A DNA stretch of 64,000 nucleotides. It comes from Candidatus Hydrogenedentota bacterium (lineage in GTDB: Bacteria; Hydrogenedentota; Hydrogenedentia; Hydrogenedentales; SLHB01). This document shows positions 41,251 to 62,632 of the stretch, in pieces. Each line of letters starts with the position of its first letter. The stretch's first letter is position 1. The stretch spans positions 513,763 through 577,762 of the forward strand of contig CAXXTH010000018.1 of NCBI GenBank assembly GCA_963668025.2. The letters run 5' to 3'. Both the position numbers and the translations under genes were made by a program. The notes below the pieces were generated by a model that was given only the letters and a program-made list of their open reading frames with translations, did not search any database and was not told where the DNA came from.

Positions 41251-41851
<601 letters not shown>

Positions 41852-43194: not shown

Positions 43195-43253
43195 ATGGGC
43201 AAGGCCGAGTGCAGGATTGTCCTGTTTTCCATAAATATACGGAGAGCGTCGTG

Positions 43254-45040: not shown

Positions 45041-45255
45041 GGCATTACCTCGCAATCTGGGCGTTACGCTCCGAAAGCGGTGAATAAGCTATATCTATTA
45101 TAACACAACACGTATCCAAACAGCGGGCGGGCGTAAAAGATTCCCTCTCTTTCTCTATCCCAGAATTCGTTTTTCAGTAGGAAAATTAGATGCACTATGA
45201 TACAGTGCTGAACGGGTTCATAGGGTAGTCGTCTGAACTGGGAAGGGCGTTGTAC

Positions 45256-47265
45256 GTGGCTCATCTTCAGGGTTGGTGTATCTGCTCGCTTCTTATCCTC
45301 TCTCTTTTTCCTGCGCAAGCTCAGGAAGCTGCACCCGTTAACAGAGCTGCATATACGGCCCGGCTGGCGCAAGACCTTTCTGCGGGTTATCTGCATATGA
45401 ATGATAAAGAGGGCGCACTTTCCTTCAAAGCACTTCCTCCCGATTATCCCTCGGATGCCGCAACCGGCGCGATTTCCATCGGCGAAGCCAAAAACGATTT
45501 CATCGGTTACGCTTGTGACAAGAATACCCAGCACGTATGGATTGACATCAATCGCAACCTGGACCTCACTGATGATCCATCCGTTCACGTTTGCCCAGTG
45601 GAAACGGAATATATAAACCATCACTATGCAGACGTTGAGTTTGATATGCCCGGCGAACCTGCCCGGCGATACAGGATGGATATTCGATTAAATTCATTGG
45701 CTAAAACCAGTTTTACGGTCATATCTGGCTGGGAGGGTTTCGTCGAGCTGCCGACAGGGAAGTATCCCATCAGCATAACCGATAATCTGAATGGAAACAT
45801 TGATTCTGGTGACGCCGTGATGATCGGGTATCGAGGGGCCGAAACAGTAGAGAGTTATAGGCCAGGAGGCATCTGCGCGGCAGGCAATCCCAGCCACTTA
45901 TTCATTGACGGGAAAAACTACGCAATAACCTACCGGTTTGAACCGGGTGCTGCCGGTGTAGACTTGCTGGCGGAATTCCATGAAACCTCTTCTCCCATGC
46001 TGGAAGCCATCGTGGCGGGCCGACATATCGACCGGATGGTGTTGGTTGGAAATCAAGGAACGTTATTTCTCGACTATCCCAGCGCAACCATAGCGGTTCC
46101 CGCAGGTTCATATACGCTCACGAGAATCATCTTGAATGCAGGCAAGGAAGATTGGAAATTCGAAAGCGCTCCCGGCCATCGGTATGTCTTTGAAGCGGGC
46201 AAGCCCGTTATCATCGAAGAAGGCGCGCCGCTCAGCAACTCGCTGGACTTGCATAAAGGTGTATTCGTTGTTTCCACCAGCTACAAGCTCCGCGACAAGA
46301 CGGGTGCAACGTATGAGCCCGTTTCGCCATTTGATCTACCGCGTCCCCAGTTACTTGTGCTCAAAGGCGGCAAGCAGATTTTATCCACCAATTTTGAGTA
46401 TGGGTGAGGGGGCACATGTTCGTACTCATGGCGAGTACCTCTGGCCGCATACGGCGAATATGAATTCGCATCGGAGTGTGATATTGGTTGTCTGGGCGAC
46501 AAAGAAGGCCTTCGCCAAACCTTGCACATAACGCCGGTAGGAACGATGATTCATATATTGCCAGTCCTGCTACTGCTCATGTTGTTTCTATTGCCCCGTA
46601 ACCGGAACCGGCATGTGTTGTGGGTGTTAGCATCATGTTTGGTGTCTGGTTTTATTATATATGCGTTTTACTCTATTACAGCCGACCCGGCGAATGGCAT
46701 AAAGAGTATTGCCATTGGTTTCTTGTTTTATATGTATGGCCTGTGCGCTGCATGGTTATTGTCTGGCAAAGATCGCATAAAAGCACGCGCGGTAAATTTA
46801 CTTTTTACCATGGCGAAACTATATGTATCTAGCGGTATTGCTGTGTTTGCATTCTGGGGTTTTTCTATGAATTTCTTTCTCTACCTAGTAGCGGAAGGGA
46901 TCGTGGCAGGGAGCATGTTTGTCGCATTGCTTCTTACGGGTGCCTGTAACTCAAAAGCATGTATAGCTAGACGTGTTATATACTGGCTGGCATTTTGGAT
47001 CATAATATTATCTTTGTTTTTAGGCATATTCTTTGGCACTATGGAAGCAAGATCGCCGTCAGAGGAGAGCGATATTTTCTTGAAGGTGCTTGCTTCGTAT
47101 ACGCTTATGGGAGTGGTCTTGTACATCCAGACGTTCCCGTTCATCGCCTTGGCCTTATGGGAGCCGCATTTCAAACAGCGTTTCAGCAGCGTATATCCCT
47201 TCCCGCCAGAACCGGAGGATACACCGCTGGAAGTAGAGCCACCTGCTCCTACCGTAAACAGATAA
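45256..47265 (+). CDS. Predicted selenoprotein A1: exported domain, FEYG-U-GGTC, C-terminal multi-pass membrane domain (~669 aa)
   Basis: ORFs 45250-46407 and 46522-47265 are in one frame, separated only by TGA 46405-46407. Readthrough gives GGTCSYSWRVPLAAYGEYEFASECDIGCLG. SECIS-like hairpin follows. Confidence 0.82.
46422..46438 (+). promoter_or_regulatory. Candidate bacterial SECIS
   Basis: GTACTC-ATGGC-GAGTAC beginning 15 nt after the TGA. Confidence 0.75.
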
Positions 47266-47331
47266 GGTGTTTTGCAAACCAAAAGGCATCAAAACAGGCG
47301 AAAGAAAACAAGGAATCCGTTTCGCTTGTAT

Positions 47332-48099
47332 TCACTTCGCCGCGATGCGCGCCGCGCCGAGTGCGCCCGTGTATTGCGGATACATGGCCACTTGAATCGG
47401 CAGGGCCAGGGCGCGTTCGAGGGCTTTCGCCATACCCGGCACGAGCGCGCCGCCGCCGGTGAACGCTACGGGAGCAACAGGATCGCGGCCCGCCATGGCC
47501 TTGATGCGTGCGGCGATGCTGTGTTGCACACCCGCGCAAATATCCTCACGCGGCACGCCCGACGCCAGCAGGCCGATGATCTCTGTTTCGGCGAATACGA
47601 CGCACATGCTGCTGATGGCGGCGGGCTGTGCGCCACGGCTGGCGAGTTCGCCCAGCGCATCGAGCCGGACGCCCATGCGGGTGGCCACCACTTCGAGAAA
47701 ACGGCCCGTGCCCGCCGCGCAGCGGTCGTTCATCACAAAATCGTTCACCGTTCCTCCGCCGTTCAATCGAATGATTTTGCTGTCCTGTCCGCCCAAATCG
47801 ATGACCGTGCGGGCCTCGGGCATGAGCCAATACACCCCGGCGGCGTGGCAAGTGATCTCCGTCACCGTGGCGTCCGCGAAGCCGATCAACTGGCGGCCGT
47901 AACCGGTCGCCACGATACGGTGGACCGCTTCCCGTGTTAAGCCCGCTTCTTTCAACAGGCGCTCGAACAGGGAATCGGCAAGCGCCTCCTGCTCGACGCC
48001 TTGGTCCACCATGCCGAAGCGCAATAGGGACTGTTGTGTCGCGTCATATAGCGCCACTTTAATCGCCCGCGACCCGGCGTCAATTCCCGCAGTAATCAT
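47332..48099 (-). CDS. ATP-dependent activase (HgdC / BcrAD / BadFG ASKHA family)
   Basis: GIDAGS, ATGYGR, TEITCH, IDLGGQDSK, MNDRCAAGTGRFLE, SMCVVFAETE, FTGGGA. Confidence 0.93.
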   Translation of the reverse strand: MITAGIDAGSRAIKVALYDATQQSLLRFGMVDQGVEQEALADSLFERLLKEAGLTREAVHRIVATGYGRQLIGFADATVTEITCHAAGVYWLMPEARTVIDLGGQDSKIIRLNGGGTVNDFVMNDRCAAGTGRFLEVVATRMGVRLDALGELASRGAQPAAISSMCVVFAETEIIGLLASGVPREDICAGVQHSIAARIKAMAGRDPVAPVAFTGGGALVPGMAKALERALALPIQVAMYPQYTGALGAARIAAK

Positions 48100-49480
48100 G
48101 TTGGACTCCTTTGTTCTCCCGGCGCATATAGATGGCCTCCACCAATGCCTGCAATCGGGTGCGTAGCGACGGCCCCATGGCGTCGCTCACCGGCGGCGCT
48201 TCCAGTTCCACTACAGGCAATCCCAGCCGCTCCCGGACCTGCTGGGCGATGGCTTCGCCCTCGAAAGCGCAGTGGCTGGCTCCGGGAATGCGGGAAACCA
48301 CCACCCCTTCCGCGCGAAACCGGACGCAATCGGCGCATACGCGCACGGCGCGGTCTTCAGCGGAACCGGCCATCGGGTCCGCCAAGGCCGCACGCGTCAA
48401 GGCTTCCATGGGCGGAATATCCTCGGGCAGCGGGTCCAAGGCGTGGCTGAACATGAAATCCGTCCCAGCCAGCCGTGCGCCGCAGTCCTCGAATAGGTTC
48501 ATCATGCGCAGATCCGCCACGGGATTCACCCAGAACACGCGCGCGGCATCACTCGGCGCGACTCCCTCCTTATTCTCGACGCGGGTACACGCCAATGCCA
48601 GCATATCTTCCAAAACCGCCAGGCTCTCGGTGCGGTCGGAACAAAAATGAATCGCCAGCATCTCAGCGATGAGCATTTCCAGCGCCGGTATGGGGGCGGA
48701 AGACGTGGAATATGCGAGCTGGCGGAGTTCGCGCAGGGCCGCTCGCACCCGGTTGGCCTGCCGGACGCCGTCGCACAACGCTTCATCCGTTAGTGTGTGG
48801 CCCGCCAGCTCTTCGAAGGCGGCCCGCAACCGCTCCAGTTCTCCACGCACAAAGGCCACTTGCGCCGCTGGCGCGATGCATCCACCGGGCAATTCCACCG
48901 CCGGTTCGCCTGGCTCGGGAGTGCGGCGGTGGGGCATTTCCCACCACAGGATGGGGTAGCCAAGGCCGTTCAGCCGCTGGGCAATGGCGGAGAAGTCGTC
49001 GCATGTGGCCCCTACGCTGCACGTGAGCAGATCGGGGATCGGGAAATGGGCTTCGGTCAAAAATGCGCCCAGCATGGCGCGCACGGGACAGAAGGATTCG
49101 CCGACGCCCAGCGAATCGGCGATGGCCAGCAGGCCGGTATTCAACTCCATCACGCAGGGGATCCACCACGCCCCATCGGGATAAAACGCCACCAGTTCAG
49201 GAAAAGCATACGCCAGCACGGGAACCGTGCCCAGATCTTTCATGGTTCCTACGATTTTTTTACCGGATGCCCGGGCCGCGTGGAGTCGGTCTTCCTCCGT
49301 GAGCAGGAAATTCCACAGCCGGAACGCGGCGGGGCTGTCATCGTAGAGCAAGCGTTCAAGGCGGAGATCGCCATCTTCGTCGACATGGCGGCGGAGCGGG
49401 CCATGGTAAGACACGCGGCTTTCGCTTGCCGCATAATGTGCGTCCATGGCATCAAGAGATATTTTCGGCACGATGGTCAT
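48080..49480 (-). CDS. 2-hydroxyacyl-CoA dehydratase (HAD) family subunit, divergent
   Basis: FCPVRAMLG, GATCDDF, GASHCAFE, LRTRLQAL.E. Start MTIVPK overlaps the upstream stop (ATGA). Confidence 0.78.
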   Translation of the reverse strand: MTIVPKISLDAMDAHYAASESRVSYHGPLRRHVDEDGDLRLERLLYDDSPAAFRLWNFLLTEEDRLHAARASGKKIVGTMKDLGTVPVLAYAFPELVAFYPDGAWWIPCVMELNTGLLAIADSLGVGESFCPVRAMLGAFLTEAHFPIPDLLTCSVGATCDDFSAIAQRLNGLGYPILWWEMPHRRTPEPGEPAVELPGGCIAPAAQVAFVRGELERLRAAFEELAGHTLTDEALCDGVRQANRVRAALRELRQLAYSTSSAPIPALEMLIAEMLAIHFCSDRTESLAVLEDMLALACTRVENKEGVAPSDAARVFWVNPVADLRMMNLFEDCGARLAGTDFMFSHALDPLPEDIPPMEALTRAALADPMAGSAEDRAVRVCADCVRFRAEGVVVSRIPGASHCAFEGEAIAQQVRERLGLPVVELEAPPVSDAMGPSLRTRLQALVEAIYMRRENKGVQHDYCGN

Positions 49481-50460
49481 CGCAAGGCCTCTAGGAATGA
49501 CTCGAGCCGCGTGGCGGTGCGCGGTGTGACGCCCTCGTCGTCGGCATCCACCGCCACCACCGGCAGCGTGGTCCATTCCCGCAAGCGGGCTTCTTCCGCC
49601 GCCCACGTGTCGCACCACAAACGCCGGATGAACACGACGCCCCGCACGCCGCGCGCGGCGAACTCCCGTTGCAGCCATTGATAGAGCAGCGTGTTGGGCC
49701 GCCGAAATGCATCGGGAATGCCGCTGAAGTAGGCTCCGGCCAGTTCACCAAAAGGATCGTCGTGTAGCGCCCGCCGGTCAAACGGGGCAGGCCAAGTACG
49801 TTCGCCGTTACCTGTTGCGTCGAGTACGAGGCGTCCGCCCCGCGCCTCGATGAAGTCAAATAAGTCCCAAAACCGTTCCGGCAATTCGGGGCCTACGACA
49901 GCCACCGGTATGCCTTGGCCACAATCAGGGATTCCTGGAAAGGCGGGCAGCGCCGTGTTCGGATCTGACTGGCATTTGCGGAGCGCCGACGCGAATACAC
50001 GGGCGGGCATCCAGGGGCGTGCATCGCGCAGACGCCGCCGGACGGTGTCATAGGCGTTCATCACTTCCGCGAGACTGGCGTTGCTGGGCCTTTCACCACC
50101 CAGCCGACACAGGAATCCTCCTAGACGCGCCAGTTCGCTTGCATACAACCGGTGCGCACTGGACGTCTGCCATGTGGCGGGCGCGTGCAGCAGGAAAACC
50201 GGATACGAGCACTCCCGCGCGGCCATCTCTGCGGCGCGGCGCATCTGGTCGCATGCCGTAGTGAAGACAGCGCCTTGGACGGGCGCTTCGCGCAAGGCAT
50301 GGACATACGCGCCCGCGTAGGCGCATACGCCCATGGGCATGGGCGCGGGAGGCTGCAAAATCGGCAGCCGCACGGAGCACACGCCATGGGCGCACAGCCA
50401 TTCCGGCGGCACGAATGGGCTGTCGCATGCCACGGCCAGCTTGGGTTCAAGGAGCGTCAT
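49477..50460 (-). CDS. HAD family subunit (short)
   Basis: SPFVPPEW, GVCAYA, TTACDQMRR, WCDTW, TRLESFLE. Confidence 0.78.
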   Translation of the reverse strand: MTLLEPKLAVACDSPFVPPEWLCAHGVCSVRLPILQPPAPMPMGVCAYAGAYVHALREAPVQGAVFTTACDQMRRAAEMAARECSYPVFLLHAPATWQTSSAHRLYASELARLGGFLCRLGGERPSNASLAEVMNAYDTVRRRLRDARPWMPARVFASALRKCQSDPNTALPAFPGIPDCGQGIPVAVVGPELPERFWDLFDFIEARGGRLVLDATGNGERTWPAPFDRRALHDDPFGELAGAYFSGIPDAFRRPNTLLYQWLQREFAARGVRGVVFIRRLWCDTWAAEEARLREWTTLPVVAVDADDEGVTPRTATRLESFLEALR

Positions 50461-50466
50461 GCCAGG

Positions 50467-51702
50467 CTACGCCCTCGCCTTGGCCGTCTCGAACAGCGCC
50501 TCGACGCGCACGGCGATGCGGGCGGAATCGGACGGCGAATAATCGGTTTCGAGACGCAGATAGGGCAGCCCCAGTTCCTCGATGGCGAACCGCCGCACGT
50601 GGAACGACTCGACATCGTAAGTGAGGCAGGCCTGCCAGACCAGTTCGATGATGCAATCGGGTCGGTATTCCGCCGCCAGCCGCCGCAGGCTCTCGATGCG
50701 GTCCGTGTTGGGCGTCATGACCGAGCAGGGCAGGTGGTAGTATTTAGCGGCCAGGGCGCGCAGCGGGTCGGGCGCGTATTCGTCTACATCCTCAATGATG
50801 GGCTTCACTCCGGTGCAGTTTTCCATGCAGACCACCAGCCCGCCGCTGGCTTCGATGATATCCAGGACGCGCTCCGCGCCATGGGGCATGGGCACGCCAG
50901 TCAAGAGCACGCGCGTGCGCTGGCCTGGATCAGACGGATCGGACAGATCGGACGGATCATGGTAATATGCGATGGCGCGCTCGTATTGGGCGAAGTCGGC
51001 TTCGAGGCCGGAGATGCTGCTCTTGAAAGCCAGCAATTCGTGGCTCGTGAACGGTGGTTCAGCGCGTTGCATCAGGGCGGCAAGTTCGCGGCGCAAGGCG
51101 CGTTCGCGGTTCATCACGCAGATAGCCGCGCGCAACGCATCGTCGGTGATGGCGCGGCCATAGCGCGCCTCGAGAAACGCCAGGAACGCGCGCAACTGGT
51201 TTTCCCAATAATCGAGGGCCTCGGGCCGCCCTTGTTTCTGGGGCAACTCGAGGATGTACATCTCCTTGCGGGCGGCCATCAGTTCATACATTTTCTTCTT
51301 CGCGTCGCAGGTCGTTTCCGCCACCACCAGGTCCGCCATTTCGAGGAACGGATTCGACTGCCGCGCGAAATAGCCATAGGTGGATTTCACCAGCGGGCAC
51401 AGGTTGGCGGGCAGGTGTTCCTCCGCCGCCGGGATGGTGGCCGCCGAACCGCCGCACAGGCAGACGGGCACGGCCCCCGCCGCCATAAGTAATTCGCGCG
51501 GGGTGTATTCACACATAATGCCCACGATGGGACGTCCCGCCGCCTGCTGTTCCCGCGCATACGCCAGGCAGTTCTCGATCATGCGCCCGAAATGGGCCTG
51601 GAACGCATGGGCGGCTGGCGCGGCCTTGCCACACGCCGGGGCCGCTGACACACAGGGATCCCCCGGCGTGATATGCACATCGCCTCCATAACACTTGCTC
51701 AT
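50467..51702 (-). CDS. Double-cubane-cluster anaerobic reductase-like protein (HAD family)
   Basis: GIMCEYTPREL, VCLCG, LPANLCPLVKSTYG, ETTCDAKKKMYE, ENCTG, LPCSVM, QACLTY, ETDYS. Confidence 0.85.
   Translation of the reverse strand: MSKCYGGDVHITPGDPCVSAAPACGKAAPAAHAFQAHFGRMIENCLAYAREQQAAGRPIVGIMCEYTPRELLMAAGAVPVCLCGGSAATIPAAEEHLPANLCPLVKSTYGYFARQSNPFLEMADLVVAETTCDAKKKMYELMAARKEMYILELPQKQGRPEALDYWENQLRAFLAFLEARYGRAITDDALRAAICVMNRERALRRELAALMQRAEPPFTSHELLAFKSSISGLEADFAQYERAIAYYHDPSDLSDPSDPGQRTRVLLTGVPMPHGAERVLDIIEASGGLVVCMENCTGVKPIIEDVDEYAPDPLRALAAKYYHLPCSVMTPNTDRIESLRRLAAEYRPDCIIELVWQACLTYDVESFHVRRFAIEELGLPYLRLETDYSPSDSARIAVRVEALFETAKARA
50927..50958 (-). repeat. In-frame 9-bp tandem repeat (DPSDLSDPSDP)
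   Basis: GATCCGTCC GATCTGTCC GATCCGTCT GATCC inside the reductase CDS. Confidence 0.7.
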
Positions 51703-51710
51703 GATACCCC

Positions 51711-52508
51711 CTATGATTTTTGGGCGACAATAAGCCCTTGAATAATTTTGCCTTGTTCCGCCAACTCACGCATGAACACCATCTCACCGCCCATGGCCTG
51801 CATCAGTTCCAGGTCGAATCCGATGCATCTGAGTGCGTCATAAGTAAGCTGCCGGGTAAGCATGTCGATATACAACGCCACACAAGGAGCAAAGCGGCCT
51901 GTATCTGCTGCATGCTTCACCGTACAGCCTGCCCCTTCGAGCAGCGCCGCATACCTGTCCAGCGTGAACACATTGGGGAATTTCATGAAGGCGCGGAATC
52001 GGGCGTCTTCCTCGGGCGTGAGGCCAGCCGGCCCCGCCAGCCAGTCCGTGAACGCAACAATCCCGCCAGGCTTCACCAAACGCACGGCCTCGGCGATGAG
52101 CTGGGGCTTGTCCTCGACATAACACCAGGCATCTTCACCCCACACGAAATCGGCCTCGCTCGATGGCAGGCCGCTGGCGCATACATCCGCCAGCGTGAAG
52201 GTGATGCGGTCCGCCAGCCCCTCGGCATTGCACCGGCCACGCCCGAGCTCGACTACATGCTCGGTGGCGTCTACGCCCTGCATGGCCGCGATGTCGCGAA
52301 AACGCACGAGGAAACGCATGCCAGCGCCGGTGCAACAGCATAAATCGATGCCGCGCATCCCGGGTTTAAAACCCGCCTTATCCGCAAGGTCCATGGACGA
52401 TTGGAAACCCCCAATATGGACCTGCTCCCCCATGACCAATTCCCATAAATCGCCCTCGGGGCCGCCATACACGGCCTGGACATCTTCGAGATGATATTCT
52501 TTCATCAT
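51711..52508 (-). CDS. Class I SAM-dependent methyltransferase
   Basis: HIGG, IDLCCCTGAG motif I, GVDAT, FVWGEDAWCYV, LVKPGG. Confidence 0.88.
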   Translation of the reverse strand: MMKEYHLEDVQAVYGGPEGDLWELVMGEQVHIGGFQSSMDLADKAGFKPGMRGIDLCCCTGAGMRFLVRFRDIAAMQGVDATEHVVELGRGRCNAEGLADRITFTLADVCASGLPSSEADFVWGEDAWCYVEDKPQLIAEAVRLVKPGGIVAFTDWLAGPAGLTPEEDARFRAFMKFPNVFTLDRYAALLEGAGCTVKHAADTGRFAPCVALYIDMLTRQLTYDALRCIGFDLELMQAMGGEMVFMRELAEQGKIIQGLIVAQKS

Positions 52509-52634
52509 ATACTACCTCCCAAATCATCTGCTTTTTGAGTCTCTTGAGCTTTTTGTGGCAAAAGAAAACCCTTCGCCAGTTCTTCAGAACCGGCGAAGGG
52601 CAAATCGCGTTTGGGCATGGAACGCCCGTATGCG

Positions 52635-54098
52635 CTAGAAGCTGATCGTCTGGACCTCCATCTTGCTATCCCAGGGGCCAGGTGTAAATGTACATAAGAC
52701 TTTATAGCTCTTGCCTTTCTGAGGGCCACTCCATGTGGCCGAGCAACTGAAGCCTCACCCATACTCGAATTGGCCTTGGGCCACGACCTCGCCGTCATCC
52801 GTCACAATCTTGTACGTGGGCTCTTTGGGCCGTGAATTATTCGTCGCGGACATAGGGATCGCATCGCCCGAACCTGCCACACGATCCAGCCTGTTCACGG
52901 CTTCTTTGCCTTTACCCATCATCGTGAAATTGAGCCGCACTCCATCCGAATGGCCTGAAGCAAAATTCTCTTTATCCCATTGATACACAAATACCGCAGG
53001 CGAATAGGGCTCACCGAAAACGGTTTTGACCGTTTCACCCGCCTTCGCCGTCCATATCGGTGTTTCATTCGTAGCCATCGCACCCATGCGCCAGGTATCG
53101 CCCTTCTTATCTTTCTTCACGGACTGGTACATGGCCACCATGTAGTCGCCGGGGGGAACGAGCACTTTGCTGGTAACGCCATACGCCATAACACCGTCCT
53201 TGGTGGCGTTCGCGGCAGCAAGCTGGACCATCGTGGCTTCCTGCCCGAGCTTCACCGTAGCCAGCGGCTCCGGCGTAGGTTCGAGGGTCATTTTCTTCGC
53301 GGGAATATCAACCGCCACCGTATACAGCGCGCCATCCAGGTACAAGTATTTGCCCATGGGGCACGTATCGTAATAATCAAGCTGTTCCTTGTCACTTAAT
53401 ACAAACAAATCGGCTCGTATATACAGAGGCTGATACGGCATATCCCGGTTCATTTCCGACATCTTCGCCTTATCCATAGGCTCCGCTAAATCCGAGAAAT
53501 TACCGTTCCCATTGCCGTCGCCCAGCATAATGCGATACGTCTTGGCATTCAGCTCGAATGTCCCCTTGTAAGCGCATGCTGTCCGGCAGATAAGCTGGAC
53601 CCTTTGAATAACGAGCTTTCCATTCTCGTCCTGTATTTGCATGGGATACGCCTGGAAAGCGAGCCTATACGGCGTATTGTTCCCACCTACGGGAATGGTT
53701 AGATCAAAAGGCTCCCAGTTCGAATAGTCGGTGCTGAACTCACTTGCCGTTGCCCACGCCTCTTCGGCCAGATCGCCATCGCCGTCCATATCGAAGAGCA
53801 GCTTGTCGTAGAAGCCATCCTCTTTCGACGGTTCAAGCACGACCAAGCGTTTTACACCGCCTAGCTCGATAATGGTATAGAGCTGCTTAGCGCCTGTGAA
53901 CTCCGGCAGTTTCCACTCGCCGGGCGGGATTTCCGGCTTGGCTTCGTCGCCCCTTCCACCACCAGGGATGAATGTCCTGTTGTCGTTCGATTGGGTGACA
54001 TACTCGAGGGGAACCTCGATAGCCGCCGCCATGGCCGCCATCGAAAAAATCCACGCGCATGCCATAAATATTGTGATGCCTCGTATTCTCACCATCAT
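52635..54098 (-). CDS. Predicted selenoprotein B: secreted, C-terminal FEYG-U-GFSC
   Basis: Apparent stop TGA 52755-52757. Readthrough adds U+GFSCSATWSGPQKGKSYKVLCTFTPGPWDSKMEVQTISF up to TAG 52635. Signal peptide; DxDGDGD motifs. Confidence 0.8.
52724..52740 (-). promoter_or_regulatory. Candidate bacterial SECIS
   Basis: GGCCAC-ATGGA-GTGGCC beginning 15 nt after the TGA. Confidence 0.75.
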
Positions 54099-54130
54099 TT
54101 AGATCCTCCTGCAAGTTAACCTCCATACGC

Positions 54131-54155
54131 GCATGGGCGGGACGCCCATGCTACG
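54131..54155 (-). repeat. GTAG-type REP palindrome
   Basis: GTAGCATGGGCGTCCCGCCCATGC. Confidence 0.75.
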
Positions 54156-54162
54156 TGCGTAT

Positions 54163-56175
54163 TTACTCCAGTGTAGCCTCCAGGGGTGGAGGGGTAGTTT
54201 CTATTGCCGGTGCATGCTCCGGCTCCAGCGGGAAGGGAAACACGCTGTAGAATCGCTGCTTGAAGTGGGAATCCCAAAGCGCCATGGCGATGAATGGCAG
54301 CGCCAGGACGTACAAAATCACCCCTATAAATGTGCATACACCAAGCACCATCAGGAAAATATCGCTCTCCCCTGATGTTATCGCAGCCACAGCGCCAAAC
54401 AGTATGCCCACCAACAAAACCGTTGCTATGCTCCAAAAGGCCAGCCAGCATACGACTCGTGTAGCGGTGCATGTTTTTAAGCAACAGACGCCGGTAAGAA
54501 GCAACGCAATGAATAAAATCCCTACGGCGATCCCTTCCATCACAAGGTATATAAAGAAATAGGAGGCGCCGCCTCCGTAAGCAAACAGGGCGATGCAGCC
54601 AAACACATATGCTTTCGCCATGGTGAAAAACAGGTTCACCGCGCGCGCCTTTATACGGTCTTTGCCAGATAATAACCACGCAGCGCATAAGCCATACATA
54701 TGGGAAAGCAAAAACACAACGGACAGTGTCACGGCAATATTCGCCCGTTCGGGCGAAATAGAGCAACATGCATATCCGGCCAAAGCCGCCACTACCGCTA
54801 TCGCTAGAATCCTCAACACATGGCGGTTGCGGTTGCGCGGCAGTAGAAACAGCACAAGCAATAGCAGGAACGGCAATAAACGAATCACGGCTCCTGTAGG
54901 TGCAATGTAATAGGTTTGGCGCGGGCCTTCTTTGTCGCCCAAACAGCCAATATCACACGCGCAAGCGAATTCGTATTTACCAAATGCGGCCAGAGGTACT
55001 CGCCATGAGTACGAACAGGTGCCCCCTCACCCATACTCGAAATTGGCGGAAGAAATCTGCTTGCCGCCTTTGTACACCACAAAAGATGGACGCGAACGCT
55101 TTGTGGATGAAGCAGGTTCATATTCCGCGCCGGTCTTGTCACAGAGTTTGTATCCGGCAGTAACCGCGAACACGCCTTTACACAGTTCAAGCGTGTTGTT
55201 CAGTGGCGCGCCTTCCGCGATGGCGACAGGCTTGCCCGCTTCAAAAACATACGAGCGAGAAGGAGAACTCTCGAACATCAATTCTTCTTTGCCGGCATTC
55301 AAGAGTATTTTCGTGAACGTAAATGAACCTGCGGGAACGGCCACGGTTCCACTGGGATGATCGAGAAACACCGTTCCTTGCTCTCCAACGAACACCATTC
55401 GTTCAATATACTGTCCCTCCACGGCGGCTTCCGCCATGGTCACGGGCGCTTCACGAAATTCCACTATCAAATCCGCGCCGGTAGCGCCCGGCTCGAAGCG
55501 GTAGGCAATCGTGTAATGCTTCCCGTCAACGAACAACTGGCTGGGATCGCCTGCCGCGCAGATGCCTTGTTGCTCATGATTCGCCAGTTTCTCCGCACCG
55601 CGAAACCCGAGCAGCACGGCGTCGCTGGAACCAATGGTTCCATTCAAATCATCGGTTACGCCAAGGGGATAGCGCCCGGTCGGCAGGTCGACAAAACCGG
55701 TCCAACCGGAGGTAATCGTCATTCGGGTCATGCCAACAGGATATATTTGAATATCCATCTTGTAATGCCGGGCGGGCTCACCCGGCATATCGAATGCTAC
55801 ACCTCGATAGGTGATGCCATAGTCGTTTTCCATATTGTCTATAAGGACCGGCGGATCATCGGCGAGATCCAGGTTGCGGTTCGCATCAATCCATATGCGC
55901 TGGGAGTTCTTGTCATAGGCGAAACCGATGAAATCGCCTTTGGCTTCGCCGATGGAAATCGCGCCGGTTGCGGCATTCGCGGGATAATCGGGGGGCAGTG
56001 TTTTAAAAGTGACCGTACCCCCTTTCTCTCCCATAGAAAGATTGCCTGCGGACATGTCTTGCGACAGCCGAGCCGTATAGACGGCTCCATCAACGGGAAC
56101 AGCTTCCTGGGCCTGCGCAGGAAAAAGAGAGAGGAAAAGAAATGAGCAGACACACCAATTCTGAAGACGAGCCAT
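54163..56175 (-). CDS. Predicted selenoprotein A2 (paralog of A1, ~670 aa)
   Basis: ORFs 55027-56175 and 54163-54942 are in frame across TGA 55027-55029: FEYG-U-GGTCSYSWRVPLAAFGKYEFACACDIGCLG. Confidence 0.82.
54996..55012 (-). promoter_or_regulatory. Candidate bacterial SECIS
   Basis: GTACTC-ATGGC-GAGTAC beginning 15 nt after the TGA, identical to the A1 hairpin. Confidence 0.75.
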
Positions 56176-56378
56176 CTACAACGCCCTCCCCAGTTAGGAG
56201 AATTACCCTGTGAACCCACTCGCTACTGTATCATAGTGCGATTAATTTTCCAAGAAGCTGGCGGCTCAAAAAATATTGCGTATTCTGTTGCAGCCGTCTA
56301 GAGTTAATCGTGATGGCGGCCAGATGGATGATCTCTAAAGCGCCACACGGAATGAAATAGGCTGGGGAGAAAATAGAC

Positions 56379-57854
56379 ATGACACGAAAAGCGGCCGTTA
56401 TTGCGATTGCGGTATTTTTTACACTCGGATTTCCTTGTTACGCGGAATTAGCGCCCATTGCCATCGAGTCTGGCATACAGGCGTATCAAGTCATTCAATG
56501 CGATGCGCATGGCCTGGCTGAGGTGAACTGTGCGGGCAGGGTGGATGCTGTTGCATCCGGCACTGTCGAGACCCGAGTCCTTTCCAAAAAACACAAGGTG
56601 AAACCCTGGTCGGCCGTCGGCACGGTGTCCGATTCAAAGTGGAATGCACACATCGCTGGTCTGCCCGTGGGCGGACCCTATGCCATCGAATTTCGCGCCA
56701 AGGACGACACCGGTAAAACGCGCGCGGAAACTGTCGTTCAGGAAGTATTGGTGGGGGATCTATGGATACTGGCCGGGCAGTCCAATATGGAAGGATATGC
56801 AGATCTGGTTCATACCGCGGAACCTTCTCGACAGGTGCATGCGTTCTATATGAACGATACCTGGCAAATCGCCAAAGAGCCGCTTCATGACTTATGGTCT
56901 TCCTGCGATCACGTCCATAATAGCGTAAGCGGTGAAAAGTCACCGGCAAAGGGGGCGGGATTGGGGCTGCCCTTCGCCTTGGAGATGGCCCGCCGCACGG
57001 GCCGCCCGGTGGGGCTTATCCCCTGTGCGCATGGCAATACTTCCATGACGCAGTGGAATCCGGAATTGAAGGAGCCATATGGCGACTCGTTATACGGTTC
57101 GATGTATCGGCGGTTTCTGGCAGTGGGCGGGCATATTCGCGGCGTCTTGTGGCATCAGGGCGAATCGGAAACGTTGTCCGATGAAGATGTCGCCGCATAC
57201 CCCCAACGGTTGAGCAGCCTTGTTCGAGCGATACGCACGGATTTCGCGTCGCCCGATTTGCCCTTCTACTATGTGCAGATTGGGCGCACGGTGCATTTTG
57301 CACCGATAGAACCACGGCGCTGGAACGCCATTCAGCAGGCCCAACTGGATGCGGAAAAGCTCATCCCCCATGTTGGAATGACTGCCAGTATAGATTTGCC
57401 GCTAGATGACTTTGTGCATGTGAGCACGGATGGGCACAAAGTGCTTGGGCAGCGATTGGCTGCGCTTGTTTGCCGGGATTTATTTGGCGAGGCATCCATC
57501 CAGGGAGGCCCGCGTTTCTCCCAGATGGAGATGGTCAAGACGCCTTATGCTCTCGAGCTTCACGTCCGGCTTCAAGGAGTCAACGGCAAACTGCAAGCGG
57601 CGGGGCGCGTGTCAGGCTTCAGCCTGAGCGATGCGGAAGGGCGTGACCTCCCCATGATCGTCGAGCAGAGCCTATCAGATGAGGAGCCAGCGACTGTGAT
57701 CCTGCGCCTCACGACGCCGCTGGGAGGCTGCCCGGAGCAGGTGTACCTGTGGTATGGGCACGGGCTGAATCCGTACTGCAATGTAGTGGATAGCCAGAAT
57801 CTAGCATTGCCGGTATTTGGGCCTGTGCCGGTGCTGGAACGCATTCCGTTCTAG
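56379..57854 (+). CDS. Sialate O-acetylesterase (SASA / SGNH) family, secreted
   Basis: GDLWILAGQSNMEG, PVGLIPCAHG, WHQGESE, DFVH. Confidence 0.88.
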   Translation: MTRKAAVIAIAVFFTLGFPCYAELAPIAIESGIQAYQVIQCDAHGLAEVNCAGRVDAVASGTVETRVLSKKHKVKPWSAVGTVSDSKWNAHIAGLPVGGPYAIEFRAKDDTGKTRAETVVQEVLVGDLWILAGQSNMEGYADLVHTAEPSRQVHAFYMNDTWQIAKEPLHDLWSSCDHVHNSVSGEKSPAKGAGLGLPFALEMARRTGRPVGLIPCAHGNTSMTQWNPELKEPYGDSLYGSMYRRFLAVGGHIRGVLWHQGESETLSDEDVAAYPQRLSSLVRAIRTDFASPDLPFYYVQIGRTVHFAPIEPRRWNAIQQAQLDAEKLIPHVGMTASIDLPLDDFVHVSTDGHKVLGQRLAALVCRDLFGEASIQGGPRFSQMEMVKTPYALELHVRLQGVNGKLQAAGRVSGFSLSDAEGRDLPMIVEQSLSDEEPATVILRLTTPLGGCPEQVYLWYGHGLNPYCNVVDSQNLALPVFGPVPVLERIPF

Positions 57855-57885
57855 TGAGAAGCAATGGCCATGCTCCTTGGCTATT

Positions 57886-58671
57886 TTAGCCAGTGGCGTT
57901 CTCCGAATCCTTATGGGGGCATGCCTTTTGGCAATCGTGGCAGACGATGCATTCGAGAGCGCGGCTCGGGGGCACGCCTTGGGCCATGTGTTTCGACGGG
58001 ATCCCATTGGCGGGGCAATACTTGTCGCAACGGTGGCATTCCTGGCATTTCGCGATAGGCTTCACGGTCCAGAAACTCACCAGATTGAGCGGGCCGAGAA
58101 TGGCCCCTATCGGGCAAAACACTTTGCAGAAGGAGCGGCTGCTGGCCATGGCCAGCAGCAATACGACGGCGAGCACGCCCAGTTTGATCCAGGAGCCCGC
58201 GTCCAGTCCAGCGATTCCCGCGCTGGCAACGTTCGGCAGGGTGACTTCGATGGCGGACGCGGGGCAATAACGGCAGAACGAGAAAACGGTGGATTCGCCA
58301 AAGAGTGCAGGGAGCAGGAGCACAAATAGGACCAGCACGGCGTACTTAATGTATCCCGTCCAATTCGGCAAAATGTATTTGCGTCCTGGGATCTTATAGA
58401 GCAAATCCTGTATGAATCCAAATGGGCACACCCACCCGCATAGCAGCCGTCCGAAAACTACTCCGAGCGCCAGCACAGTTCCTACGGCCAGAAAGGGAAA
58501 AGCCCAATAGGCCGCATAATGGACAAATACGCCGATGGGACAGGCGAACCAAGACAGCGGACAGGAATGGCAAGTAAGCACGGGATTACACAGCCATTTC
58601 GCGTCCAATCCCCACGAACAATGGAGCATCACCAGCGCCGAAATCTGAACCCACCACCGCCGCAACATCAC
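57886..58671 (-). CDS. Membrane 4Fe-4S binding protein (NapH/YccM-like polyferredoxin)
   Basis: CHSCP...CPIG, GRLLCGWVCPFG, FCRYCP, FCKVFCPIG, CxxCxxCxxxCP twice. Confidence 0.9.
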   Translation of the reverse strand: MMLRRWWVQISALVMLHCSWGLDAKWLCNPVLTCHSCPLSWFACPIGVFVHYAAYWAFPFLAVGTVLALGVVFGRLLCGWVCPFGFIQDLLYKIPGRKYILPNWTGYIKYAVLVLFVLLLPALFGESTVFSFCRYCPASAIEVTLPNVASAGIAGLDAGSWIKLGVLAVVLLLAMASSRSFCKVFCPIGAILGPLNLVSFWTVKPIAKCQECHRCDKYCPANGIPSKHMAQGVPPSRALECIVCHDCQKACPHKDSENATG

Positions 58672-58715
58672 CAGCCCCTAAACCCTAGCCCCTAAACCCT
58701 AAACCCTATCTCCTA
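58672..58715 (-). repeat. Heptameric (TTTAGGG)-like tandem repeat, potential G-quadruplex
   Basis: TAGGAGATAGGGTTTAGGGTTTAGGGGCTAGGGTTTAGGGGCTG directly before the start codon. Confidence 0.75.
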
Positions 58716-58732
58716 GCGGCTCCCATGGCCGC
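58716..58732 (-). promoter_or_regulatory. Candidate bacterial SECIS (in the 3' UTR)
   Basis: GCGGC-CATGGGA-GCCGC beginning 14 nt after TGA 58746-58748. Confidence 0.6.
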
Positions 58733-58739
58733 GAATGCC

Positions 58740-59009
58740 TCACTTTCAAGTGGGGCAGGAGCGCTTGCCCCTCGGGGCTGAGCGGTCGTAGGTGGAATAC
58801 AGTTTGCCGTCTTTTCTCACTACCCCGGTGAATGTGGCGTCGATGGTGAGCTGCCAATCCGGGATGCGCTCGAAAGTGATGAGGCCGAATTCCTGGCCCA
58901 TTTCGTCCTGTTCGTAGACCTTGCGCGAATAGACCGCGCCCGTGGCGATGCAGGCAACTGCTATCGCGAGCAACACGCCCGCCACCGTTTTCTGAATCAT
59001 GCCATGCAT
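58740..59009 (-). CDS. Small membrane-anchored protein, predicted C-terminal CxxU (SCPT-U-K)
   Basis: N-terminal TM helix; ends TGC CCC ACT TGA AAG TGA; lies between selB and the polyferredoxin. Confidence 0.68.
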
Positions 59010-59012
59010 GGC

Positions 59013-60998
59013 CTAAAGCAGGTTCCTTTCATATTGGTACGCCAGCATGCGAAGGTTCTCCCGCCGTATGGTGACGCGCCGTTTGTCCAGATAATCCAGA
59101 ATCGCGATGGCGTATTTCCGCGTGGACTCTATCCTATACTTAAAATCCGCCGAATCCAGTTTTCCGTCCCGCTGGATGGCTTCCACGGCGATAGTCTGCG
59201 CACGTTGCATGGCAGAATAGCTCAGCACCACGTTTTTAGCAAGCCGGATCAGCAGCCCCTCGGCGCAGGCGAGCTGCAACAGCTTTTCGATGTGAGCCTC
59301 CGACGCACCGAGTAGTTCTGGCAATTCATCCGGGCGGGGCGATTGGAAGGCGTTTTCTTCATACACCGTCAAAATACGTTCGAGCAGCGCGCGGTCGTCC
59401 TCGGGCAATCGTTCCAATGCGCCGCGCAGCACCATACGCCCCGTGCGCGACGCCGTTGCTCCTTGCTGTTTGAGCCCTGCTTGGGCCTTGCGCCAGAAGG
59501 GCGCGGGCCATCCTAATTCCTGCTGCAACGCCGCAGTGTTAAGCTCGATGGCCCCGCCTTGTTCAAGGCGTTCCTTGAGCAACGCCACGCCTTCCTGGAA
59601 ACGGCCCGCATCCGCGTAGTGGCCGTCCTCGAGTGCGAGGAGTTCGCCGGACGCCGCCAAGATATCGAGCCGGGCGCGCGCCGTTTCAATGGGCAGATAA
59701 GCGGCTCGCGCGGCGGTTTCGAGGGATGCGCTAGGCGCATCCGCCGTGTGAAAGAAATGGCGCAGGCGTCGGCGCTGTCCCTCTTCCGAGAACGGCTCCG
59801 CATCGCCAAGGGCCTCCGCACACGCCACCAGTTCATCCAACGCTTGTTTCTTGCGAGGGCGGTTCGCGCCCGCGTAAATGGCCCATATATCGCCCCCAGC
59901 CACTGTAGTCGCAGGCGATATGCGCCGCAGGATGAAGCGGTCATGCGGAACCACTGCTATAGGTTCGCTCAAGGCCAGCACCGCCCAGCACGGCTCGCTT
60001 TCGCGCGCCTGTTCTTGGTCGAGGAGATACACCTTGCCCGGCTGCTCGCTCGTGCCGGTATGCAGCCGGACTTGCTCGGCGTTCCGCAGCGGCGTATCGA
60101 TTCCCGCCGCCGCACGCAAGCGCACGCCAAAAAAGGAGGCCGCCTGCAAATAGCCCGGTGCGGCGATGGACTGCCCACGCTCGGGGGGCGTCTTGCCGAA
60201 CTCGGGTACGTTGAGGGCGAGGCATTGTCCGCTGGCCCCCTCTTCCGCTTGCCGCAAGAAACACTGGATGCCCCGGATATGCCCCCGCTGGCCGCCGGGG
60301 GCCAATTCGACTTCATCGCCCACGCGCACCTGGCCGGATAACGGAATGCCGGTGGCGACGGCCCCGAATCCTTTGCGCAGAAAGACGCGCTCGATAGGCA
60401 TGCGGAAGATCCCCGCGCGGCGGGTTTGTTCGGCGGCGCGGATGGCGGACACGAGGGTTTCGTAGAAAGGCCAGAATCCTTCACCCGTCTCGGAAGACAC
60501 GGGGCAAATGGGCGCGCCGTCGAGGAACGTGCCCGCGGTGAAGACACGCAGATCCTCGATCACCTCGGCCACCCGTTCCGGCGTCACGAGGTCGATCTTC
60601 GTAAGCGCGATGATGCCGCGCCGCACGCCGAGAAGATCCATTATCTGGAAATGCTCGATGGTCTGCGGCATGATGCCGTCATCGGCGGCGACCACGAGGA
60701 TCGTAAGATCGATGCCCGAAACGCCCGCCACCATGTTGCGGATGAATTTTTCGTGGCCGGGCACGTCGACGATGCCTACGCATAGTTTGCCGCCCAGACA
60801 ACAGGGCGCGAAACCGAGTTCGATGGTCAGCCCGCGCTCCTGCTCGATCTTAAGGCGATCCGTGTTACAGCCCGTAAGCATCTTCACGAGCCGGGTCTTG
60901 CCATGGTCCACGTGCCCCGCCGTGCATACCATCATGAGCACGTCGGGCTCGACCTCGCGCCGGAGGAGTCCCGGCGGCGATGCGGCATGGGTGGCCAC
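59013..60998 (-). CDS. selB: Selenocysteine-specific elongation factor
   Basis: TAGHVDHGKT, EQERGLTIELGF, DVPGHEKF, LTKID, C-terminal STRKYAIAILDYLD winged helix. Confidence 0.95.
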   Translation of the reverse strand: MATHAASPPGLLRREVEPDVLMMVCTAGHVDHGKTRLVKMLTGCNTDRLKIEQERGLTIELGFAPCCLGGKLCVGIVDVPGHEKFIRNMVAGVSGIDLTILVVAADDGIMPQTIEHFQIMDLLGVRRGIIALTKIDLVTPERVAEVIEDLRVFTAGTFLDGAPICPVSSETGEGFWPFYETLVSAIRAAEQTRRAGIFRMPIERVFLRKGFGAVATGIPLSGQVRVGDEVELAPGGQRGHIRGIQCFLRQAEEGASGQCLALNVPEFGKTPPERGQSIAAPGYLQAASFFGVRLRAAAGIDTPLRNAEQVRLHTGTSEQPGKVYLLDQEQARESEPCWAVLALSEPIAVVPHDRFILRRISPATTVAGGDIWAIYAGANRPRKKQALDELVACAEALGDAEPFSEEGQRRRLRHFFHTADAPSASLETAARAAYLPIETARARLDILAASGELLALEDGHYADAGRFQEGVALLKERLEQGGAIELNTAALQQELGWPAPFWRKAQAGLKQQGATASRTGRMVLRGALERLPEDDRALLERILTVYEENAFQSPRPDELPELLGASEAHIEKLLQLACAEGLLIRLAKNVVLSYSAMQRAQTIAVEAIQRDGKLDSADFKYRIESTRKYAIAILDYLDKRRVTIRRENLRMLAYQYERNLL

Positions 60999-61001
60999 GG
61001 G

Positions 61002-61386
61002 CTAGAGCCCCACTTCCTGGCAAACTTCCTTATAGAACATCATGGCGGTGCAGCCGCCGAAGGCCACGGCCAGCCGCGCCGTTTCGTCGATTTCGTCTTT
61101 CGATATGCCCATCTGAACGGCCCCTTGCAGATGGATCTTCAGGCAAGGGTGGCAGTGATGCGCAATGGATAGCAGAATGGCCATCAGCTTCTTGTGTTTC
61201 GCATCAATCAGCCCCGGCGCGTTGGCTTCTTTCATGAAAGCTTTGAATGATTCAAACGGGTCCATATTCGGATCTCCTTGTATGGGCGGGGTCTTCACCG
61301 GCGTGATGTCCGGCGGTTCACAGCAACAGGCCGCGTCTTCAACGGGCGCTGCTATCTCAATCGGCTTGTCTTTCAGGCGGTTCATA
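61002..61386 (-). CDS. Carboxymuconolactone decarboxylase / AhpD-like domain (possibly the C-terminus of SelD)
   Basis: KHKKLMAILLSIAHHCHPCLKIH..GA...G...DEI.E, FGGC; preceded by a CCC linker. Confidence 0.75.
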
Positions 61387-62632
61387 TCCACCGTCGCTGG
61401 CTCGCCCACGAACCGGCCCAGGGGCGGCGTTGGTAACGATGACCCGGCCTTCAGTCTGCCCGGGCGCTTTCTCCACAATCCGCCCGATAGCCGCCGCCGC
61501 AGTATGCCCGCGCATCTTCATATCATCCAGAAACGCTTCCGCTTGCGCGGGCGGCAAGGCGATGAGCAATCCGCCGGAAGTTTGCGGATCAAACAGCACC
61601 GGCAAACCGCCCTGGCCCGCGCCTTCGGTGATGTCGATCCAGCTCATGGCGTACGCCTGGTTGCGGTCCACCGCCCCGCCGAACACCTCGTGCGCAAGGC
61701 AGGCCGATGCGGATGCGAGCACGGGAATGGCGGACATATCGATTTCGGCGTTGACGCCGCTGCCGCGCACCATGGACACAAGATGGCCCGCCAAGCCGAA
61801 TCCGGTCACATCGGTGCAGGCATGCGCGCCGTGGCGCAGCATCAGTTCGGATGCGTCGCGATTGAGGGCCGCCATCCACTCTCCCGCTTCATTCAGCGCC
61901 GCCTCGTCTATCACGCCCAATTGGGCCGCGAAGGACACGATGCCCGTGCCCAGCGGCTTGGTGAGGACAAGGACATCGCCGGGCTGGGCGCAGTCGCGCG
62001 CGATGGGCTGGCGGGGGGTCGATGACGCCCGTGACCGCGAAACCACATTTGATCTCTTCGTCGTTGATGCTGTGGCCGCCGATGAGGGCGCAGTTGGCTT
62101 CTTCGAGGGTTTCCATGCCGCCCAGCAGCATCTCGCGCAGAATACCTCCATCCAGCGTCTCGATGGGGAATCCCACGATCGACAGCGCCGTGATGGGCCG
62201 CCCACCCATGGCGTAGACATCGCTTACGGAATTGGCGGCGGCGATGCGCCCGAACAGGCGGGCGTCATTGACGCATGGTGTGAACACATCGACCGTCTGC
62301 ACCAGCGCCGTCCGCTCATCCAACCGGTAGACGCCCGCATCGTCGCCCGCCGCTGCGCCCAGCAGCACATTCGGGTCCGTGGGCAGCGGAAGGCCGCTGA
62401 GCAATTGTTGCAAGTCGGCCTGCCCGATCTTGGACGCGCACCCGGCCTTGCGGACATATTGGGTCAACGCGGCGCGGCCAGTCTTCACGGAAATACGTTC
62501 ACCCGCACACGGGCATACATTCTGTTCGATGAGCGGCGGGCACGGGCACGGATGCTTAGGATTGCAGATGCAATGCCCCAGCTTGCGCGAACGCTCCATC
62601 ACCGCCCGGCGTCGTTCGAGATCAATGGCCAA
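61357..62632 (-). CDS. selD: Selenide, water dikinase with Cys-rich N-terminal extension (frameshift near 62015)
   Basis: KAGCASK, GDDAGVY, QTVDVFTP, AANSVSDVYAMGG, GGHS, LTKPLGTG, TDVTGFGLAGH, DPQTSGGLL. One extra C in a homopolymer. Confidence 0.9.

Follow-up and report, generated by a model that had tools for sequence, protein, structure and literature searches.

A SECIS-like hairpin with an A-N-G-G-N loop after in-frame UGA codons of a bacterial gene island

The hairpins beside described bacterial elements

The selenocysteine insertion sequence (SECIS) of Escherichia coli fdhF has a loop with an essential G and U, and a bulged U in its stem. Here we describe a hairpin that follows in-frame UGA codons of four genes, called A1, A2, B and C, in a stretch of 64,000 nucleotides (nt) from a Candidatus Hydrogenedentota bacterium (assembly GCA_963668025.2, contig CAXXTH010000018.1, positions 513,763 to 577,762). 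This whole stretch is termed the window, and all positions given below are counted from its first letter. The hairpins resemble the fdhF element in that they are small, lie at a fixed short distance after the UGA and are presumably read by the C-terminal winged-helix domain of SelB, the selenocysteine (Sec)-specific elongation factor. Going by the general features of the fdhF element rather than by a comparison with its sequence, they differ from it in the lack of a bulged U, in a loop with GG instead of GU, and in the position of the loop, which is a few nt further from the UGA. The comparative evidence set out here makes it very probable that all four hairpins are bacterial SECIS (bSECIS) elements, and that they travel with a gene island.

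As summarized in the 2026 review PMC13188914, the bSECIS model used for bSECISearch (Zhang and Gladyshev 2005) allows 3-9 nt for the loop and 4-16 base pairs (bp) for the upper stem, and places the apical loop 16-37 nt from the UGA. It asks for one G or more among the first two nucleotides of the loop (mostly GG or GU) and for a minimum free energy no higher than -7.5 kcal/mol; according to the same source, some bSECIS elements fail the model. Measured against this summary, the hairpins of the window agree with the model in following directly after an in-frame UGA, with a loop of 5 (or 7) nt and a stem of 5-7 bp. The loop lies 20 nt from the UGA in the A and B hairpins, and 19-22 nt from it in those of the C family, within the 16-37 nt of the model, and conserved G residues are present in a small apical loop.

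Gene A1 (45250..47265, + strand, translated with TGA as U) encodes a signal peptide, an all-beta region with the Sec motif FEYG-U-GGTCSYSWRVP (U386) and a C-terminal multi-pass membrane region. Its Sec codon at 46405-46407 is followed by a 14-nt spacer and the hairpin GUACUC-AUGGC-GAGUAC at 46422-46438, the DNA reading GTACTC at 46422-46427, ATGGC at 46428-46432 and GAGTAC at 46433-46438 (whole element 46405..46438, + strand). The paralogous gene A2 (54163..56175, - strand, translated in the same way; U383) is 63% identical to A1 in an alignment that covers the whole length and runs across the UGA. Its Sec codon lies at 55029-55027 and its hairpin, at 55012-54996, is identical to that of A1 (54996..55029, - strand); because they are paralogues, A1 and A2 count as one observation. 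Gene B (52635..54098, - strand, again translated with TGA as U) encodes a signal peptide and an all-beta protein with the Sec motif FEYG-U-GFSCSATW (U448), placed 39 residues before the C terminus, and has in common with A1 and A2 a C-terminal module with the motif FEYG-U-G..C...W. Behind its TGA at 52757-52755 stands the hairpin GGCCAC-AUGGA-GUGGCC at 52740-52724, composed of GGCCAC at 52740-52735, ATGGA at 52734-52730 and GTGGCC at 52729-52724 (52724..52757, - strand). In A1, A2 and B alike, the stem begins at +15 after the TGA and ATGG at +21.

Gene C (58740..59009, - strand) encodes a small membrane-anchored protein that ends ...KRSCPT-U-K-stop. Its first TGA, at 58748-58746, is the Sec codon and its second, at 58742-58740, the stop codon, with AAG between them. 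The hairpin GCGGC-CAUGGGA-GCCGC (58716..58732, - strand) is located past the stop codon in the 3' untranslated region, with GCGGC at 58732-58728, CATGGGA at 58727-58721 and GCCGC at 58720-58716; the stem starts at +14 and ATGG at +20. An alternative drawing, GCGGCC-AUGG-G(A)GCCGC, has a bulge. The DNA letters and distances at all four sites are as the first-pass annotation had given them.

As to the genes themselves, the usual marks of selenoproteins are present: a conserved in-frame UGA, homology on both sides of it, and selB, selD and selA in the window. With its ending CPT-U-x-stop, gene C is similar to 'UXX-star' and 'KCU-star', two selenoprotein families with Sec near the C terminus that are named in Table 1 of PMC13188914, in that the SECIS must lie past the stop codon; compared by the motifs listed there, its CxxU-x-stop sets it apart from both. 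None of the 119 families in that table is listed with YG-U-GxxC or CPT-U-x-stop. The gene island also resembles selenoprotein operons, a topic of PMC13188914, in which genes of the Sec machinery neighbour selenoprotein genes: selC, selA, selD and selB stand on the same stretch of DNA as the selenoprotein genes that depend on them. It is set apart by its linked SelB, which makes up a separate clade that spans phyla.

Database searches gave no match for the four genes or their hairpins among described families. No Rfam model matched above its gathering score at the four hairpin sites, the only matches in the window being three group II intron models. A1, A2, B and C matched no family of Pfam-A or NCBIfam (release 20) at E values up to 0.01; with 30 pieces of the Sec domain and E up to 0.1, there was no match in Pfam and two single-member chance hits in NCBIfam. 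The NCBIfam model NF049953 (motif GUxG) did not match the A, B or C loci. A search of a protein database with B returned 6 hits of 442-447 amino acids, all ending at the UGA; such records appear as "hypothetical proteins". In the literature, supplementary files being outside the search, we found no paper on the A, B or C families.

Conservation of the UGA, the stem and the loop

Homologues were gathered through genome searches, which covered 133 genomes of the window's class, and through a DNA pattern scan; searches for related loci with single proteins gave no match. Homologues of A are present in 17 of the 133 class genomes, where 22 of 26 matched stretches have one in-frame TGA and the other 4 fall short of the site. 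Those of B are present in 17 class genomes as well, with one TGA in 28 of 36 stretches, the other 8 stopping before the site. Every homologue that reaches the site thus keeps the UGA (22/22 for A and 28/28 for B, to which a profile search of five genomes from other phyla adds 28/28 matches), and none of the genomic homologues of A or B has a Cys codon there. Gene C has 15 strong matches in the class, all of which read CPT-U-x followed by TGA, TAG or TAA.

Over the 47 A and B sites of the class, 96.7% of the alignment cells of the stem pair, compared with 68.8% after shuffling (none of 500 shuffles was as high); partners slid against each other pair in 27-51%, and four of the six pairs covary. 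From the A and B alignment, RNAalifold predicts the inner 5-bp helix unaided. In a set of 40 sites from A, B and C that includes the other phyla, 95.8% of stem cells pair, compared with 57.6% after shuffling, and five of the six pairs covary. The five outer pairs of this set (200 cells) contain no unpaired cell, 11 G.U wobbles and no A.C; with wobble pairs of this kind and no unpaired cell, the structure is therefore one of the sense-strand RNA.

The stem of B differs from that of A by changes that turn YS..RV into AT..SG and keep the pairing, so that the earlier description of these differences as compensatory holds. Further compensatory changes that alter amino acids are YP..CGG, LS..RE (CTC/GAG), VS..GG and V..D (GTC/GAC). 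The outer pair varies among G-C, A-U, G-U and C-G, and GCC/GGC to GUC/GAC and A-U to G-U are also seen. Compensated variants from other phyla include UACCC/GGGUA, CUCUC/GAGAG and GUCUC/GAGGC.

The loop is less uniform than first described. CAUGG had been taken as a fixed loop, but ACGGC, AGGGC, CUGGC and GUGGC are found in addition. The consensus is A-N-G-G-N, with AUGGN the commonest form and a C-G closing pair in 29 of the 40 sites; the two Gs and, mostly, this closing pair are the only constant features. Where the closing pair is lost the loop becomes CAUGGGN, as in gene C of the window and in those B variants whose Trp is followed by Asp, Ala or Val. The hairpin overall has a stem of 5-7 bp and a loop that starts 20-23 nt after the UGA. 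One divergent member of the family without the Trp (L223, in G137:C48) has a CGUGC loop on a bulged stem, nearer to the classical GU-type loop. A lower stem between (U)GAGG and a downstream CCUC had been suggested for A1, A2 and B; GAGG and CCTC are present in all three, but their pairing is not conserved, with 51.1% of cells paired and no covariation, and we rejected this extension.

That the loop is not merely a Trp codon, as had been argued from gene C of the window, is upheld across the C family, which carries the hairpin in non-coding RNA in 17/17 homologues (15/15 in the class and 2/2 in other phyla), the A of the loop standing at +20 to +23. In these homologues the non-coding hairpin stays constant while its flanks diverge.

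Within the coding sequence, selection on the stem is visible at synonymous positions. Among 38 unique A-type sites obtained by protein search, the stem codons are fixed as TAC for Tyr (38/38), TCA for Ser (36/38) and CGA or AGA for Arg (38/38), with Val as GTA in 36/38 and GTG in 2/38; the codon preceding Tyr ends in G in 38/38, though it encodes seven different residues. Outside the stem, synonyms are free: Pro is CCT in 18 sites, CCC in 14, CCA in 4 and CCG in 2, Cys is TGT in 12 and TGC in 24, and the Gly codons beside the stem also vary. Genome-wide, the fractions of the fixed codons are 0.41 for TAC, 0.08 for TCA, 0.11 for CGA and AGA together and 0.13 for GTA. Since synonymous sites in the stem are fixed on rare codons and neighbouring ones are free, the peptide alone does not explain the stem. 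The SECIS type of the hairpin, as proposed by the first-pass annotation, is supported by its position, structure, covariation, synonymous selection in the stem, conservation of the UGA and linkage to Sec genes.

In scans of the 6.1-Mb genome, the four best hits of a covariance model of the hairpin (R1) were B (46.4 bits), A2 (43.1 bits), A1 (41.3 bits) and C (22.5 bits, E 0.12). Hits of 15-21 bits, in this genome and in genomes of a family of the class termed f7, lay in frames full of stops, with nothing credible among them. Loosely defined, hairpins with an ATGG loop do not occur more often after TGA than they do behind nine other triplets; with coding context taken into account, a stem of at least 5 bp at +20 or +21 occurs only at the known sites. 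A scan for NNGGN loops in coding context found 7 of 2517 TGAs (0.28%); the corresponding shares are 0.86% for TAA and 0.24% for TAG. A1, A2 and B account for three of the seven, and one more, examined in full, is an ordinary gene end. TGA is a common ordinary stop in this genome, with 2517 coding-context ends compared with 2660 for TAA and 2053 for TAG. A de novo screen for other selenoprotein genes by codon and hexamer usage did not separate the known sites from background, so that genes with another type of SECIS could be missed. We found no molybdopterin enzyme in this genome (peroxiredoxin and hdrA were not searched for), and identified no other selenoprotein gene in it, the de novo screen being uninformative and the search not covering all families.

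The gene island and its SelB across phyla

The region upstream of gene C contains, in the same orientation, selB, a CMD/AhpD-like gene, selD and selA, and the contig stops within selA. The selB gene (59013..60998, - strand; TIGR00475 294.8 bits, cut-off 242.25) is directly upstream of gene C, in agreement with the adjacency first noted, and its product has a winged-helix domain, Pfam SelB-wing_3, at residues 607-652. Next comes selD of the Cys type (...KAGCASK...) with an AhpD/CMD-like domain (61002..62632, - strand), its frames broken by single-base indels in the assembly, and then selA (63188..64000, - strand), which is cut by the end of the contig and shows a single frameshift in the assembly. 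In the window selD and CMD are adjacent open reading frames (ORFs) with an indel at 61421 between them and may form a single gene; a genome from outside the class (L315:7210-8811) has selD fused to a CMD/AhpD-like domain with a CxxC motif.

A pattern scan with TGA-N14-GTACTCATGGMGAGTACC over one genome per species found at least 122 loci. An open G-U....YSWRVP frame with a different peptide in each case is present at 120 of them; one more clearly belongs to the same family and one is a chance match. Because the scan required the hairpin, it measures spread and not variation. Several of the loci with a record title coincide with sequences already gathered from genomes of the window's class, which is itself labelled Hydrogenedentota; a B homologue in the protein database also bears this name. 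The record labels among these loci (80 titles) comprise Verrucomicrobiota, Planctomycetota/Phycisphaerae, Kiritimatiellia, Hydrogenedentota, Sumerlaeota/BRC1, Omnitrophota, Riflebacteria and others. The first-pass annotation had proposed a lineage-specific consensus. This is contradicted by an identical A-type hairpin under so many phylum labels, and by the occurrence of A, B and C within the window's class only in genomes with the island.

At least 10 class genomes have selB, C and A or B on one contig. The islands of three relatives, two from the class and one from outside it, contain tRNA-Sec, selA, selD, selB and C, followed by A or B; in the two class islands a Fer4_5 gene comes after C, and one of them ends with a methyltransferase, the gene order in the window being the same. 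Of the 133 class genomes, 24 have a SelB above the cut-off: 13 of these have A, B or C, ten belong to f7 and one is G109. A, B and C were found in 0 of 14 f7 genomes and in none of the eleven f7 or G109 genomes with SelB. In five f7 genomes the model R1 gave only chance-level hits outside coding frames, no molybdopterin enzyme with an in-frame TGA was found there or in the five genomes from other phyla, and the selD matches of f7 have no in-frame stop.

A quick tree of 25 SelB sequences (LG+G4), sampling seven SelBs from f7 and four from outside the class, has one branch that parts the f7 and G109 SelBs from all SelBs of island genomes, those from outside the class included (Shimodaira-Hasegawa-like approximate likelihood ratio test, SH-aLRT, 100). 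Forcing the class SelBs into a single clade costs 112.8 log-likelihood units and is rejected (approximately unbiased, AU, test, p = 4e-12). An N-terminal extension with the conserved signature PPGLL...PDV.MM.CTAGHVDHGKT (60900-60998 in the window) is present in the class island SelBs and in two of the four from outside, and absent from f7-type SelBs. The island SelB clade across phyla and the AU rejection point to the whole set moving together. The best-supported reading of these sequence comparisons is that the hairpin belongs with an island of the form selC-selA-selD(-CMD)-selB-C-Fer4-A/B(-methyltransferase), patchily present across many phyla, and not with the host lineage, because R1 hits are credible only at the four island sites and nothing credible appears in the five f7 genomes.

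Alternative explanations, implications and surrounding genes

Several observations weigh against reading the hairpins as bSECIS elements. The model as summarized in PMC13188914 asks for a G in loop position 1 or 2, whereas here the invariant Gs are positions 3 and 4 of a 5-nt loop. As a result 37 of the 40 sites have no G in the first two loop positions (AUGGN, ACGGC or CUGGC), and three agree with this rule (GUGGC once and AGGGC twice). The A-type stem by itself is weak, at -6.0 kcal/mol (-7.1 kcal/mol with flanks), short of the -7.5 kcal/mol of the model so summarized, so that the A type is a borderline case on energy; the other hairpins alone reach -10.1 kcal/mol (B) and -7.8 to -11.6 kcal/mol (C). 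Single-sequence folding is no stronger a support, with z-scores of -1.33, +0.87, -1.10 and +0.04 at the four sites, none of them notable. On folding 60 nt, a check suggested at the outset, the hairpin of B is part of the minimum-energy structure, but those of A1, A2 and C are not. For A1 and A2 it is outside the minimum-energy fold of 42 or 60 nt after the UGA; the 42-nt stretches have energies of -9.4 to -13.5 kcal/mol, which A1 and A2 reach through other folds. Most of the double changes in the A and B alignment correspond to one split between A and B and thus to fewer independent events. The C-family stem is nearly invariant, with 94.4% of cells paired compared with 93.5% after shuffling (69/500 shuffles as high); because it barely varies, shuffling cannot test it. 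No homologue with Cys at the UGA was seen among the 6 protein-database hits of B, which is unusual for a selenoprotein. Finally, no tRNA-Sec was found in this assembly, in which the contig ends inside selA; in the islands of the three relatives tRNA-Sec lies beside selA in 3/3, just past selA where the contig of the window stops.

It is unlikely that this bacterial lineage has the hairpin as its own SECIS consensus, shared by all of its selenoprotein genes and unlike that of other bacteria. Three protein families of the genome do share it, and our searches of the genome turned up no further selenoprotein gene with which to contrast them, but the exact A-type hairpin with its UGA recurs at the 122 or more loci under many phylum labels, and within the same class the f7 genomes, ten of them with a SelB, are devoid of A, B and C and, in the five scanned, of model hits above chance. 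An account without any RNA function, in which the stem is a by-product of the conserved peptide C-S-Y-S-W-R-V-P, could draw on the near invariance of this peptide in the A family, on the Trp that is invariant across A and B, and on a lowest-energy structure of A1 and A2 that is not the hairpin. We consider it very improbable, given synonymous stem positions that are fixed on genome-rare codons while flanking ones vary, two arms that change together where the peptide changes, and the same hairpin in the non-coding RNA after gene C. The inverted repeat is a near-perfect palindrome with a fixed centre, as would suit a protein-binding palindrome or a recombination site acting as DNA; it could likewise act as antisense RNA. 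We give these possibilities next to no weight, as the wobble pairs of the outer stem, found as G.U and never as A.C, are mismatches on the other strand or in DNA, and the spacing from the UGA varies by no more than 4 nt, also where the sequence does not code for protein.

The UGA would be read otherwise than as Sec if the genetic code were changed, if read-through were leaky, or if the codon were a true stop between two separate genes. The missing tRNA-Sec and the apparent frameshifts of selD and selA in the window speak for such a reading. Against it, homology continues in frame beyond the UGA, TGA ends about one-third of well-scoring frames in this genome and ends gene C itself two codons past the Sec codon, and the relatives' islands have tRNA-Sec where the window breaks off. 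The frameshifts, moreover, look like assembly errors at a poorly polished contig end, because contigs from other runs under the same organism label lack the additional base at 62013, which falls in a stretch of Cs (two runs), and the one at 63723 (one run, X2, depth 39). Such contigs also have single-base differences at 61421 (one base fewer), 63450 and 63530. Taken together, this makes a reading other than Sec highly improbable.

If the four hairpins are bSECIS elements, as we favor, SelB loaded with Sec-tRNA(Sec) would bind the hairpin with the winged-helix domains at its C terminus and bring Sec to the UGA, which would yield full-length A1, A2 and B and a C protein ending CPT-U-K; the island SelB would be tuned to the A-N-G-G-N loop. 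A wider scenario is possible, and we put it forward tentatively. The island may be a self-contained, horizontally spreading Sec unit with three undescribed families of exported or membrane selenoproteins, a Fer4 protein and a methyltransferase, in which a SelB clade and an off-model SECIS are co-specialised. The Sec trait of many bacteria of the Planctomycetes-Verrucomicrobia-Chlamydiae (PVC) group and of candidate phyla might then serve mainly one extracytoplasmic redox system. The Sec trait in the organisms studied here may rest on this family rather than on formate dehydrogenase, because our searches detected no molybdopterin enzyme in this genome and, in the five genomes from other phyla, none that has an in-frame TGA (other selenoprotein families were not searched for).

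The bacterial SECIS is a known kind of element, of which these hairpins are a variant; they mark a selenoprotein island that is widespread but absent from annotation. Public annotation truncates a large number of its selenoprotein genes at the UGA, as shown for the B family. The conserved Gs stand one position later than the rule applied by SECIS finders, which would explain why genes have been passed over; if so, standard pipelines based on SECIS or on Cys/Sec pairs miss the island because the loop breaks the search rule and there are no Cys forms. The A-N-G-G-N loop widens the range that a bacterial SelB may be expected to read, and the presence of two SelB types in one bacterial class provides a natural case for testing the co-evolution of SelB and SECIS.

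Around the selenoprotein genes, a Fer4_5 / 4Fe-4S dicluster membrane protein is encoded directly after gene C (57886..58671, - strand), a position kept in the islands of two relatives. A SAM-dependent methyltransferase gene (51711..52508, - strand) directly follows gene B; the island of one relative also ends with such a gene. The AlphaFold model of B is all-beta (predicted local distance difference test, pLDDT, 89.7), and a Foldseek comparison with the PDB gave only generic immunoglobulin-like or adhesin-like matches with a TM score of about 0.1, from which no function can be derived. The N-terminal halves of A and B have conserved D-x-N-x-N-x-D-L-T-D-D-P and G-D-x-N-x-N-G-R-F-D-D motifs that resemble calcium-binding or FG-GAP-like loops. 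The interval between A1 and the methyltransferase gene (47332-51702, - strand) encodes an activase ATPase of the BcrAD/BadFG type and has three HGD-D (2-hydroxyacyl-CoA dehydratase-like) ORFs; two of the HGD-D ORFs overlap by about 200 nt, possibly through another assembly indel. The island is flanked and interrupted by two sialidase-like genes with BNR repeats and by one gene for a sialate O-acetylesterase (SASA), at 41980-44450 (+ strand) and 56379-57854 (+ strand), and the group II intron matched by the three Rfam models is located at 41251-41766 (- strand). Just past the hairpin of gene C, at 58670-58712 (- strand), there is a short run of GGGTTTA/GGGGCTA-like repeats, in place of which one relative has a different short repeat.

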